DNA of 64,000 nucleotides from the IMG/VR virus record IMGVR_UViG_3300034110_001237, positions 64,001-128,000 of that record, one strand, 5' to 3'. Below are positions 11,781-51,477 of this stretch, in pieces. Under the pieces are notes generated by a model, which was not told where the DNA came from, searched no databases, and saw only the letters and a program-made list of their open reading frames with translations. The position numbers and the translations under genes are program-made. Origin of the DNA: a virus. The first letter of the stretch is position 1. Every line of letters starts with the position of its first letter.

Positions 11781-12380
11781 ATGAACGAAAAAATTAGCCG
11801 TTTACTCAACGCTTTTTATCACATCAGCTTTGATGGAACCGATTACTTCTCTGTTTCACCTACCGTACCACACGATGGTATTTCAGAGTTGGCGATTTGT
11901 ATTGCTCATGATTGTGATATTCATGTCATGCCTTGCATTAATCCAGACGTTACTTCTTTGCGTGATGCAGATGGAACCATGAATGATATTTATCAAGACA
12001 TGTTCTTTTCCTTTGAACAATACCCGACTCTGACAGGCTTCTTGAAGATTGCCGCTCGTGGGATTGGTATGGATAACATGCTTGGACGTATTACCAGTGG
12101 AGTGGATCTTAAAAATCCTGTTGAATTAATTAATGCCATTGTGGCAGAGCAAGACTACCCAGAAATTATTGAAGGCTTTGTCTACTCTCGCCTACAAGAT
12201 GATAATGATGGTGAAGATACCTCAACGCTGGATATCAGCTTTGACAGTGTAGGGGCGTATGTGAAGGTTCGTTCACTGGATAGCCTTCGTTATCGGACAA
12301 GCTATGGCGGTGGTAAAAGTGACCGTCTTCGTAATTCTTTGCTGTTGATTTGTTATATCATTCATCATAACCTTGTCTAA
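11781..12380 (+). CDS. hypothetical protein
   Basis: TGGTATAAT promoter, 199 aa. Confidence 0.8.
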   Translation: MNEKISRLLNAFYHISFDGTDYFSVSPTVPHDGISELAICIAHDCDIHVMPCINPDVTSLRDADGTMNDIYQDMFFSFEQYPTLTGFLKIAARGIGMDNMLGRITSGVDLKNPVELINAIVAEQDYPEIIEGFVYSRLQDDNDGEDTSTLDISFDSVGAYVKVRSLDSLRYRTSYGGGKSDRLRNSLLLICYIIHHNLV

Positions 12381-48457: not shown

Positions 48458-48982
48458 TTAATCAATTTCTAATCGTTTTAAACCATGTACTCTGGCAATT
48501 TCATCAATGGCTTGTTGTTCAATAGAAGGTGTTGTTGCGTTATGGATAATCTCCTTATCCGTAAATCCATGATGAATTTTGTACGCAGTTTCTCCTGTAA
48601 TTCCACCTTTATAGAGAATGTCTGCTCTTATTTGTTCTTTGTAATAATTTATGACAGGATGTTCGATGTTGGAAAATAGATCGGATATTAAACCTTTGTA
48701 AATCATGTTATTAAATTTTGTTATTTTTCGGTTTAAAAAAGATTCAAGAAATGATATGGCAAATGTGAACAAACCACCAAAAACAAAAAATGTCCATAAA
48801 TAGTTCATATAAAGATTATATTCTTCATCATCTAATATTGTTGCTACTTTTGTCCCAAATCCTATTGTCATCACTAAAAATAGCATCAGTATAACGAGTC
48901 CATATGATTTAATTTTATATTTGTAATCGTTAGGATTTTTTTTGTAAAATTCAAATCTTTCTAAAAATTCTTTGTTTTTCAT
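48458..48982 (-). CDS. 2-TM membrane protein, paralog of 44229
   Basis: RBS AGGAG before ATG 48982; shared motifs. Confidence 0.8.
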   Translation of the reverse strand: MKNKEFLERFEFYKKNPNDYKYKIKSYGLVILMLFLVMTIGFGTKVATILDDEEYNLYMNYLWTFFVFGGLFTFAISFLESFLNRKITKFNNMIYKGLISDLFSNIEHPVINYYKEQIRADILYKGGITGETAYKIHHGFTDKEIIHNATTPSIEQQAIDEIARVHGLKRLEID

Positions 48983-49137
48983 GATACACTCCTTTATTAT
49001 TTTACAGTTTATTAGTAAAAAAAAATTAATCAAATTTATTCAAAAAACTCCTTGAAAGGTATTGATTGCTTCGTTTCTTTTTGCTAGAATGGCTACATTG
49101 ATGAGATGACAACTCAAAAGTCACTCAGAATTGTAAC

Positions 49138-49240
49138 GCGGATGTGTGAGCGTAATAGGAGAGTTGGCCGTCCGTCCTTGAATAAAGGTTGCTCTACTGT
49201 TGTATTGGTAACGTAGGTTCAAATCCTACCATCTGCACCA
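49138..49240 (+). ncRNA. tRNA-like RNA (Leu-like acceptor) with non-canonical D/anticodon region
   Basis: GCGGATG/CATCTGC-A-CCA, GTAGG-TTCAAAT-CCTAC; 103 nt; no canonical anticodon arm. Confidence 0.7.
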
Positions 49241-49288
49241 AATTTCTTGATTGTTGTGATGGCTTGTGGTATAATCATCACATCAAAC

Positions 49289-49452
49289 GAATTAGGAGCC
49301 TTCGTCAAAGAAGGTTGGATAGCAGCGGTGTCGCGGGCAAGCTATCAAGAAAGGTGAGAAATACTCCCTTTCATAGTAACAAAGTCCATCAGGGTGCTGT
49401 TTGCCTTGATTAAAACGCTTAGGTGAAGCGGTTCTTTGTTACGAACTTATTT
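49289..49452 (+). ncRNA. multi-stem structured RNA, copy A
   Basis: Own TTGATT-N17-TATAAT promoter; stems covary with copy B. Confidence 0.75.
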
Positions 49453-49458
49453 GTCAAT

Positions 49459-49521
49459 TAGCGAAGGAATTATAGTCCTAGTGGCTATGATTAAAACGGT
49501 TAGGTGGACTGGCCTTCGTTA
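49459..49521 (+). ncRNA. stand-alone 3-way-junction module of the repeated RNA (copy C)
   Basis: TAGCGAAGG/CCTTCGTTA closing stem, TGATTAAAACGGTTAGGTG core. Confidence 0.65.
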
Positions 49522-49581
49522 AGACCAATTTTAAAGGTTGTTATTTACAGGTAATTGATGTATAATAACTTCCAGTTAAAC

Positions 49582-49750
49582 GAATACGGAGCAGCAGTTA
49601 AATGTTGCTGAATGGTAGCGGTGGTCGGGCGAGCCATTGTGTGAAGGGGAGGTGATTTCTTAGTCCCTCTCTTAGCAACAAGGGAATTAAGATGTTGTTT
49701 GTCTTGATTAACACGGTTGGGTGAACCGGCCCTTGTTGCAAACCTTATTC
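49582..49750 (+). ncRNA. multi-stem structured RNA, copy B
   Basis: Own TTGTTA-N17-TATAAT promoter; stems covary with copy A. Confidence 0.75.
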
Positions 49751-49784
49751 CAAAGAGTTGTCGATGACAGCTTTTTTTGTTTTA

Positions 49785-49960
49785 TGCCCTATAGTCTAAT
49801 GGATAATCATTGACAGACTGACAAATTAGTCAGAATCATTCAGGTTAAACTGAATGTGAAGTTGAAAATGGTAACTTTTCGGTTCATGCAAAACCGAAAA
49901 GGAGGACGCCACGTATGTATGTTGGTGGAGATGCAGGTTCGATTCCTGCTTAGGGTACCA
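49785..49960 (+). ncRNA. tRNA-Glu-like scaffold with ~96-nt multi-hairpin insertion in the D loop
   Basis: GCCCTA/TAGGGT-A-CCA, D stem GTCT..GGAC, CCAC/GTGG stem, GCAGG-TTCGATT-CCTGC. Confidence 0.75.
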
Positions 49961-49983
49961 ATTTAATGAATGTGGAGATTATC

Positions 49984-50196
49984 ATGATTAAGAATAACGA
50001 ATTTGCAAGTGATTATGCTAAACAACTTGTATCTAACATGACTCTTGAACAACGCCAAATGGCATTTAAACACCTTGAAAGTTTTTTTGATGAAGTTACA
50101 ATTGCAACCATGAAATATGATGCACAATACATTGGTGAAGAGCGAGCAGCGATGGACCGTGCCCTTGCTGAGTTGGATGCTAAACCTTCTGTTTAA
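49984..50196 (+). CDS. small hypothetical protein inside ncRNA island
   Basis: RBS GGAG before ATG 49984. Confidence 0.7.
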   Translation: MIKNNEFASDYAKQLVSNMTLEQRQMAFKHLESFFDEVTIATMKYDAQYIGEERAAMDRALAELDAKPSV

Positions 50197-50212
50197 TGGG
50201 ATACCTTTTTAT

Positions 50213-50265
50213 TGGTGAATACTCAATTTATTGAGGTCGTAGGCTAATCCCTTCTTCACCAGCCA
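50213..50265 (+). ncRNA. 53-nt tRNA-like RNA lacking the anticodon arm
   Basis: TGGTGAA/TTCACCA-G-CCA, TA, CTCAA-ttta-TTGAG, GTC, degenerate T arm GTAGG-CTAATC-CCTTC. Confidence 0.55.
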
Positions 50266-50268
50266 GAT

Positions 50269-50379
50269 TTGCTGTAGGCTCTTGTAGCCTGTCCGACCGG
50301 GTTGTGACCGGGCAGTACCAGACGGTACCCATTTAGGTGGAGTCAATAAGGCGTAGGTAACTGGTTCCTATTGCAGCAA
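50269..50379 (+). ncRNA. candidate multi-branched structured RNA
   Basis: TTGCTGTA/TGCAGCAA closing stem with several internal hairpins, GC-rich. Confidence 0.55.
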
Positions 50380-50470
50380 TGATATTATTAACACTATTGA
50401 GAGAATATTATGCCGACATATGAAAAAATCTGGACACGATTATAAAATGTTAACCCTAGGAGGGTAAATT

Positions 50471-50632
50471 ATGTCCAGAAGTGTAAAAGGCAGTAAAGGT
50501 TGTGGTTATGAATATTGGTCTAAACGTCCTATGTGCTATTCTTCTCCCGGTCGTTGGGCAAAGCAGAAATGCCATAGAATTGAAAGACAACATGATAAAG
50601 AGTTAATCAGAACTGAACTCAAAGATCTTTGA
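50471..50632 (+). CDS. small basic 53-aa protein (below track cutoff)
   Basis: RBS AGGAGG; MSRSVKGSKGCGYEYWSKRP...PGRWAK..CHRIER. Confidence 0.75.
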   Translation: MSRSVKGSKGCGYEYWSKRPMCYSSPGRWAKQKCHRIERQHDKELIRTELKDL

Positions 50633-50783
50633 GTGGTTCTTACAGAGCAAGACCTGCATTAAGTGAAGACTGGCAGCTTGATACGGGAATTATACCGGCC
50701 CAGCGGAATAGTGGAGCGAGAGGTGTAAACCTTGACCTTAGAAGCGATGATTTCCGGTGACTTGGTGGTGGAATTAGAACCAC
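50633..50783 (+). ncRNA. candidate structured RNA
   Basis: GTGGTTCT/AGAACCAC 8-bp closing stem, GC-rich interior, terminator follows. Confidence 0.5.
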
Positions 50784-50800
50784 ATAGTACATAGTACGGG

Positions 50801-50828
50801 AAAAGACTTCTTATGAAGTCTTTTTTTT
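50801..50828 (+). terminator. bidirectional intrinsic terminator closing the ncRNA island
   Basis: AAAAGACTTC-ttat-GAAGTCTTTT TTTT. Confidence 0.8.
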
Positions 50829-50844: not shown

Positions 50845-51477
50845 TTACATTTTTAAGCGTCTTTTTGTTTCTAGTTTTGGTTTTGGCGTTTCTCTATTTG
50901 CTGCCAAATTAATCCATTGAGTGTCTTCTCTACCTTGTTTATCTATACTATGAGATAATTTTACATTTCCAAAAAGTTTTGATTCGTCAATTATTTTTGT
51001 TAATTCTGGTATGGTATAATAACTGAAAAATCTTCCTTTTGGATCGCTTGATTCACCTTCACCTGCCTTAAAGCTTGCATATATTTTTGCCCCTTCTCGC
51101 ATGCTTTCAGCAATATTTTTTAAAGCATCTTTTAATTCATTTTTGTTCAAATGAAGTAATGAAGCCATACACCAGACACCATCAAATTCATTTTTCCAAT
51201 TTATTTCTGAAAATGTTTTATTTTCAACAACAACACCAGAATTGTGTTTAGCAATTTCAACCAATTCTTTTGAGGCATCTATACCTTGCACATTAAATCC
51301 TAAATTTTTGAACGCCAGTAAATCACGACCTGAACCGCAACCCGCATCCAATATTTTTGCACCTACTGGTAAGTTCTTTGTAAATTCCTTGTGAAGATCG
51401 GAAATGTCCAAGTTTATAGTGCTTTGAGCGTACTCATCAGCATTCTTATTGTAATAATCTATCGTCTCTTTATTCAT
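50845..51477 (-). CDS. class I SAM-dependent methyltransferase
   Basis: ILDAGCGSGRD, GIDAS, FDGVWCMASLLH, YASFK.GEGE. Confidence 0.9.
   Translation of the reverse strand: MNKETIDYYNKNADEYAQSTINLDISDLHKEFTKNLPVGAKILDAGCGSGRDLLAFKNLGFNVQGIDASKELVEIAKHNSGVVVENKTFSEINWKNEFDGVWCMASLLHLNKNELKDALKNIAESMREGAKIYASFKAGEGESSDPKGRFFSYYTIPELTKIIDESKLFGNVKLSHSIDKQGREDTQWINLAANRETPKPKLETKRRLKM

Follow-up and report, generated by a model that had tools for sequence, protein, structure and literature searches.

A predicted modular small RNA of an uncatalogued family in the tRNA-rich islands of giant phage-like elements

INTRODUCTION

The T4 RNAs C and D were already known in the 1970s, and the ROOL and GOLLD RNAs were described later. 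All of them are clearly selected, and we know of none with an assigned function. The orphan structured RNAs of phage tRNA islands are a long-standing puzzle. In the T4 annotation, rnaC and rnaD are 119 to 139 nt long. These two are small stable noncoding RNAs at the end of the phage tRNA cluster, and they are cotranscribed or processed with the tRNAs (PMC3014915). ROOL and GOLLD are RNAs of phages and prophages that often lie by tRNA islands and form RNA-only cages; in GOLLD, the 3' part is conserved and the 5' part variable (PMC12286853).

Here, a locus in a 64,000-nt stretch of viral DNA (the window; positions 64,001 to 128,000 of IMG/VR record IMGVR_UViG_3300034110_001237) was analyzed. We show that two paralogous genes and a free-standing module in this window encode a small, by prediction highly structured RNA, which belongs to a family not catalogued in Rfam 15. 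Its transcription, its ends and its stability are inferred from the sequence.

RESULTS

The window contains an island of consecutive RNA units

The stretch from 49040 to 49960 (0.9 kb) is poor in open reading frames (ORFs) and consists of consecutive RNA units. Two covariance models were used, R1 for the full-length RNA and R2 for the P5 module alone. The features of the island are the following:

49062 to 49245, + strand: tRNA-like RNA 1 with its promoter (49062-49090; promoter by consensus scan)
49247 to 49275, + strand: promoter of copy A, TTGATT-N17-TATAAT with TG before the -10 element (10 of 12 consensus matches)
49285 to 49455, + strand: predicted RNA copy A (single-sequence fold; R1, 178 bits, E 5.5e-46; covariation)
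within 49285 to 49455, + strand: P1 of copy A, the helix closing the 5' and 3' ends (fold)
about 49297 to 49316, + strand: hairpin P2 of copy A (fold)
about 49318 to 49346, + strand: hairpin P3 of copy A with the invariant loop AGCGGUG..CGGGCRA (fold)
about 49349 to 49372, + strand: hairpin P4 of copy A with a bulged U (fold)
49376 to 49442, + strand: P5 three-way-junction module of copy A (alignment and consensus fold; R2, 75.1 bits)
49459 to 49521, + strand: free-standing P5 module (63 nt) between A and B (R2, 73 bits, E 4.5e-18)
49538 to 49566, + strand: promoter of copy B, TTGTTA-N17-TATAAT (10 of 12 consensus matches; kept in relatives)
49578 to 49751, + strand: predicted RNA copy B, with A-like architecture and other stem sequences (fold; R1, 194.1 bits, E 2.5e-50)
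about 49675 to 49739, + strand: P5 module of copy B (R2, 87.7 bits)
49752 to 49776, + strand: intrinsic terminator closing the A-module-B array (11-pair stem, then a T run)
49778 to 49955, + strand: tRNA-like RNA 2 with a large internal insert (end ..UUAGGGU-A-CCA; sub-threshold Rfam tRNA score)

A sequence-only reading of this DNA had placed a TTG-N17-TATAAT promoter before each copy, followed in both cases by AAACGAAT. Both promoters and both occurrences of AAACGAAT were found, and every element cited in that reading lies at the position given there. According to the promoter positions, transcription would start at about the first bases of the closing helix P1. Each unit is a predicted stand-alone gene with a sigma-70-type promoter.

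Relatives are few and reside in giant phage-like elements

Scanning IMG/VR with the module core revealed five other records. Four of these, L003 (G001), L004 (G002), L006 and L007 (G004), are close relatives in which the gene order is unchanged. The fifth, L005 (G003), has a length of 437 kb and a completeness rating of 98%. Two of its copies are of a short form that lacks P4 and stand in tandem, a full-length copy lies 11 kb beyond them, and one copy consists of the module only. Four more contigs came from one scan of metagenomes. L135 carries A, module and B; L143 and L144 carry one copy each with its own promoter; and L141, the proteins of which are only ~28% identical to those of the window's record, carries the module only. 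Two diverged paralogs lie side by side in five lineages. The copy A promoter is also kept in L003, L004, L007 and L135, and the array terminator in L003, L004 and L007.

INPHARED phages gave no match, either to the island by blastn or to the adjacent 607-aa protein by tblastn. A pattern scan of species-representative bacterial genomes yielded 48 loci, none of which was real according to R1. The same held for 60 new loci detected in IMG/VR viral contigs with a two-motif pattern; a pattern of the P3 loop gave at least 79 loci in these contigs, with no real one by R1 among the matches listed. A synteny search with the 76-aa protein encoded downstream returned the closest relative only. Judged by these sequence searches, the family, although real, is rare and does not extend beyond one broad group of elements, with about ten sequence types; so few types in one group provide limited phylogenetic power.

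The carriers are giant phage-like elements, each of which could be a giant prophage, a free huge phage or a chromosomal island. They are labeled phage on the basis of IMG/VR and CheckV calls, PHROG matches to virion proteins, and a protein family common in large phages. Pfam models of terminase and of the HK97 capsid had no match in G000 (the whole record of the window) to G004. In a metagenome contig of 1,859,102 bp (L136; Ga0308158_10000001), the RNA is located in the middle, at 1,086,264-1,091,461. One relative is an excerpt of this contig, and the closest relatives of the window's provirus are situated centrally on very large contigs, L136 and the 773-kb L152.

Covariation supports a common five-helix fold

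When folded separately, copies A and B showed one common architecture of five helices, P1 to P5. The single-sequence fold of copy A had -55.2 kcal/mol (z -3.9) and that of copy B with the terminator -76.1 kcal/mol (z -5.3), and in both cases none of 200 shuffles was equal. P1 joins both ends of the RNA. P2 is a hairpin with a free loop, and P3 is a 6-bp stem, followed by a G-C and a C-G pair that close the invariant GGUG-N-CGG loop. The one constant feature of P4 is a bulged U (RG-U-GA); the GGUGA of this hairpin is helical, with the U alone bulged. P4 is missing from copies a and b of L005, which represent the short form. All stem pairs that the sequence-only reading had quoted as different in sequence and still paired in both copies formed in these folds. 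Its P4, proposed as AGGGGA/TCCCTC, does form, and the pairing was slightly refined to a hairpin with one conserved bulged U.

Analysis of nine full-length sequences with RNAalifold gave 42 pairs, 19 of them with compensatory changes. In the model alignment of 17 sequences, 95.9% of the pair cells were paired, versus 30-46% in control registers slid by 1-3 columns, and two-sided changes were present in 25 of the 42 pairs. The covariation score of this alignment was 0.496 compared to 0.238 in shuffles, and 0.496 was not reached by any of 500 shuffles. The numerous G-U pairs, such as the 11 G-U at pair 15/32 and the 10 U-G at pair 116/137, fix the RNA strand as the + strand. We conclude that the predicted fold is under selection, its shape being well supported by covariation across independent genomes. 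This also strengthens the earlier proposal of a selected functional RNA fold, for which the A/B pair is no longer the sole basis.

In the comparison with L003, copy A was 88%, the free module 100%, and copy B 90% identical, while the next ORF was 71% identical. In L135, the corresponding values were 91% for copy A and 74% for the upstream ORF. In these comparisons, the RNAs are better conserved than the neighboring genes. The free module of L004 was 97% identical.

ORFs overlap the copies (49189-49413, + strand, 74 aa; 49598-49741, - strand, 47 aa), as would be expected if the array were a duplicated protein-coding or regulatory DNA segment and not an RNA gene. However, the substitutions are concentrated in compensatory pairs, the G-U pairs fix the strand, and the promoters face into the units. 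Furthermore, coding is excluded by indels of 1 and 2 nt between homologs. The DNA-segment explanation has next to no probability left and is effectively refuted by the covariation statistics.

P5 is a portable module with invariant unpaired bases

The P5 module (~65 nt) is composed of an outer stem, a variable hairpin (P5a), an unpaired UAAAA stretch and a 5-bp hairpin (P5b). The consensus fold of 20 aligned copies has 20 pairs, 14 of which show double changes. P5a starts with AU and ends with GAU in all aligned modules, and the junction reads GAU-UAAAA-CG invariantly save for UAACA in place of UAAAA in two copies. The loop of P5b is an RGGYG pentaloop, which reads AGGUG, GGGUG or, in 3 of the 20 modules, GGGCG; one copy has an expanded loop. 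Across the alignment, the pentaloop changes by transitions only. The sequence of the P5a loop is unconstrained, with a UUCG tetraloop in L129, and a loop-loop contact between P5a and P5b was rejected for this reason. A conserved pseudoknot partner for the loop was not found within the module.

The core TGATTAAMACGSTTRGGTG is present exactly three times in the 64-kb window (at 49407, 49488 and 49705), versus 0.04 expected occurrences, and an R2 search of the whole 161.7-kb record returned these three modules and no others. The junction domain is indeed repeated alone at 49459-49521, as had been noticed from the sequence. In addition to the window, a solo module was detected in two settings: in G003, it is the 3' end of a different promoter-driven RNA, and in L141, it is located past the stop codon, in the 3'UTR of a 45-aa ORF. 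In summary, the comparisons show a modular RNA with a conserved predicted head (P2-P3), an optional P4 and a portable P5 module.

Natural self-cleaving ribozymes are usually small and combine invariant junction or loop bases with variable stems. The P5 junction resembles them: it is small, portable and present in tandem, its junction and loop are invariant while its stems vary freely, and it resides in phage-like DNA near tRNAs. It could be a self-cleaving or otherwise catalytic module that processes multiunit transcripts of the island. Against this, no known ribozyme family matched at E<=10, and since each full unit has its own promoter, no processing is needed to part A from B. The lack of a conserved pseudoknot partner in the module and the UUCG version of the P5a loop also speak against catalysis, which we regard as unlikely.

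The RNA does not match known families

Rfam 15 comprises 4227 models, including those of riboswitches, ribozymes, ROOL, GOLLD, OLE, raiA, 6S, SRP, RNase P, tmRNA, T-box and YrlA. With the gathering score applied to the whole window, two tRNAs were detected elsewhere and nothing on the array. At E<=10, no match in the region 48900-50100 overlapped A, B or the free module. At both thresholds, this agrees with the sequence-only reading, which could not assign a known family. ARAGORN and the Rfam tRNA model also missed A, B and the module, which have no T loop and no CCA end. When R1 and R2 were run with filters off on the tRNA region of T4 (NC_000866, 69500-74500), in a search for rnaC or rnaD homology, the best match had 5.6 bits (E 0.56) and lay off any full-length match.

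GGUG-containing motifs recur in P4 and in the loops of P3 and P5b, and copy B contains GGAGGUGAU. The RNA could be a decoy that mimics rRNA or a Shine-Dalgarno sequence and attracts the 3' end of 16S rRNA, the 30S subunit or a ribosomal protein. However, with filters off and the E. coli rrnB operon as the sole rRNA reference, the best matches of R1 and R2 had 5.2 and 11.1 bits (E ~0.4-0.8), and the Rfam LSU model found nothing at E<=10 in the whole record (G000). On this E. coli reference and with the LSU model, mimicry of rRNA was rejected. The idea of a Shine-Dalgarno sponge is weakened by the helical state of GGUGA in P4 and by the dispensability of P4, and the GGGCG loop in 3 of the 20 modules breaks the pairing to CACCU. 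Moreover, the 7- to 8-mers shared with 16S rRNA (UAGCGGUG and UAAACGA) are at chance level for these lengths. Overall, a decoy of this kind appears very unlikely.

The Ro/TROVE protein (PF05731) was absent from G000-G004, where controls were detected, and no CCA-adding enzyme was found in these five. For these records, a Y RNA/Ro pair and a CCA-adding enzyme were consequently discarded as partners.

Downstream partners differ between carriers, and tRNAs are the constant neighbors

In L144, a terminator is located immediately 3' of the RNA, and in L143 the copy is followed by ~300 nt of further structured RNA and then by a terminator. In G003, tRNA-Cys starts within 3 nt of the tandem short copies, with a terminator behind it; cleavage by RNase P at the 5' end of tRNA-Cys would define the 3' end of the upstream RNA. 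An AT-rich stretch comes after copy B in L135, while in L003, L004 and L007 copy B is followed by a terminator and then directly by the 76-aa ORF, for which no Pfam family scored above the cutoff. No terminator and no ORF come after copy A or the free module. The downstream partner can therefore be an RNA unit, a tRNA, a terminator only, or nothing, depending on the carrier. This variation argues against a cis-regulatory leader.

A specific form of such a leader would be a ligand riboswitch, in which an aptamer controls the terminator at 49752-49776 and, hence, the downstream 76-aa ORF. The direct succession of copy B, intrinsic terminator and ORF in L003, L004 and L007 is in line with this, and a multihelix junction with invariant unpaired bases looks aptamer-like. 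However, A and the free module lack a following terminator or ORF, the L005 copies lead into a tRNA, copy B of L135 precedes AT-rich DNA, and the module of L141 is located past a stop codon. Furthermore, there is no evident alternative pairing of P1 or P5 with the terminator stem, and the RNA does not keep the constant 5'-leader position, with an expression platform, that is typical of a riboswitch. A riboswitch is quite improbable on these grounds. A type III antitoxin-like array (repeats, terminator and small ORF) was dropped as a candidate because the downstream gene is not constant and its 76-aa product has no Pfam family above the cutoff.

G003 has 27 tRNA genes, and its RNA copies are located inside a tRNA-rich stretch at 375-393 kb; the 12-kb L005 locus contains seven tRNAs. 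One tRNA that ARAGORN called in this cluster (L005, 7866-7941) has a four-base anticodon (agaa) and is possibly a frameshift-suppressor-like or an aberrant tRNA. Copy A of G001 and of G004 is preceded, at a distance of ~45 nt, by a tRNA with a score of 34 bits. Thus, in G003, G001 and G004, the family is present as a small noncoding RNA gene within a phage tRNA cluster.

In the window, anticodon-less tRNA-like RNAs were found on both flanks of the array. tRNA-like RNA 1 (49138-49245), which sits behind its own promoter and a leader, has a perfect T arm, A73, an encoded CCA (end ..CAUCUGC-A-CCA) and the acceptor GCGGAUG/CAUCUGC with a G3-U70 pair, and no readable anticodon. Its Rfam tRNA score of 19.3 bits is below threshold, and ARAGORN did not call it. 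With its alanine-identity-like features, the RNA is reminiscent of the tRNA-like end of tmRNA. It is kept upstream of copy A in L003, L004, L007 and L135. tRNA-like RNA 2 has a multihairpin insert of ~100 nt, and its Rfam tRNA score (18.3 bits) is also below threshold. It is absent from the same place in L003, L004 and L007 and is, by this comparison, a lineage-specific insertion.

Other elements accompany the island

Downstream, the island extends into ORF-free, GC-richer stretches with multiple predicted helices at 50200-50385 and 50635-50795, followed by a terminator at 50798-50827. The stretch at 50635-50795, which contains the motif AGUGGAGCGA..CCUUAGAAGCGAUGA, has counterparts in two other lineages, likewise downstream of the RNA family (L143, ~1030-930, minus strand; L005, ~12100-12132). 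It probably represents another uncatalogued RNA family, which accompanies the first.

Between the two downstream RNA stretches, at 50471-50632 (+ strand), lies a 53-aa ORF rich in Lys, Arg and Cys (P0001). It had no Pfam match, and its atlas neighbors are unnamed viral clusters; judging by its composition, its product could be an RNA-binding partner. Right after the island, at 50845-51477 (- strand), a class I SAM-dependent methyltransferase is encoded (Methyltransf_25, E 4e-14), which has a weak PHROG match to 'tRNA methyltransferase' and is represented by an identical protein in several assemblies. This adjacent gene was also detected on a 773-kb ENA contig (L152) and in a MAG.

DISCUSSION

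The data presented here describe a real and rare family of predicted structured RNAs, which is not catalogued and joins the orphan RNAs of phage tRNA islands. The RNA probably does not regulate by pairing to mRNAs, nor is it likely to be a cis switch. Our best guess, which we consider plausible and would not yet call probable, is a stable trans-acting docking RNA with invariant unpaired bases that hold a partner. The G-rich loops and the A-rich junction would make the contact. Because of the genomic company, the partner would most likely come from the tRNA or translation apparatus, such as the 3' end of a tRNA or tRNA mimic, or a tRNA-handling or ribosomal protein. Diverged paralogs and an extra module would increase dose or valency during infection. 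The pentaloop varies by transitions only, as would be permitted if it paired with a fixed partner.

Several RNAs recognize tRNA ends by short pairing. In 23S rRNA, G2251 and G2252 pair with C75 and C74 of tRNA, and both the GGU in L15 of RNase P and the UGGN of the T-box pair with RCC(A). By analogy, the RGGYG pentaloop, perhaps along with the GGUG loop of P3, might capture the single-stranded RCC(A) 3' end of tRNAs or of the adjacent tRNA mimics, and the Y position of the pentaloop could read the discriminator base. The transition-only changes of the pentaloop fit this idea as well. L003, L006 and L007 have an extra upstream tRNA with discriminator G, and the loop of their B copy is GGGCG; the window and L004 are without this tRNA, and their B-copy loop is GGGUG. 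This is a possible covariation, which amounts to a single evolutionary event. The proposed pairing comprises only 3-4 bp. The tRNA-Cys of G003, which we take to have discriminator U, fits neither adjacent loop. Given one co-change and this misfit, we rate capture of tRNA ends low and consider it doubtful. If true, it would reveal a free-standing, phage-encoded RNA that holds tRNA ends and could shield, sequester, sense or chemically act on them during infection, for example, in protection against host defenses attacking tRNA ends.

The docking RNA must also be weighed against an RNA-only multimer, a homo-oligomer or A/B hetero-oligomer that would resemble the ROOL and GOLLD nanocages on a smaller scale. 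The genomic niche is common to both, two diverged paralogs are kept adjacent in five lineages, and the invariant loops have no intramolecular partner. On the other hand, a conserved self-complementary loop is missing, since the CGCG of the A-type P3 loop is not present in the B type; carriers with a single copy exist (L143 and L144); and ROOL and GOLLD are 3-5 times as large. We therefore view a multimer as improbable.

For the puzzle of orphan RNAs in phage tRNA islands, this family provides a compact, modular example. With ~165 nt and a portable core of ~65 nt, the RNA is of a size suited to probing, crystallography or cryo-EM, and pulldowns. If its loops did bind tRNA ends or a translation factor, this would represent a new viral way of handling host translation or anti-tRNA defenses. 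Even with an ordinary function, the family would be a solid new entry for RNA family catalogues, and its carriers seem to be rich in tRNA mimics and other uncharacterized RNAs.

In form only, P5b resembles the P loop of 23S rRNA (H80), as both consist of a short stem and a G-rich pentaloop; in the E. coli sequence, H80 has a 4-bp stem and a GGGGC pentaloop. In contrast to H80, L15 of RNase P and the T-box, with which it has no homology, the pentaloop is part of a P5 junction that has no counterpart there. Similar to YrlA and the bacterial Y RNAs, the RNA described here is a phage- or bacterium-encoded structured small RNA with ends that form a closing helix and with ties to tRNA-like elements, but it differs from YrlA by having no Rfam match and no T-arm or acceptor-like module of its own. 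Compared to ROOL and GOLLD (~580 and ~800 nt), it is short and has no Rfam match; phage-like DNA, tRNA islands, an elaborate covarying structure and no known protein partner are common to all three. The T4 RNAs C and D, without detectable homology, are likewise small noncoding RNAs of a phage tRNA cluster, from which this RNA is distinguished by its own promoters, its modular build of five helices and its portable junction module.
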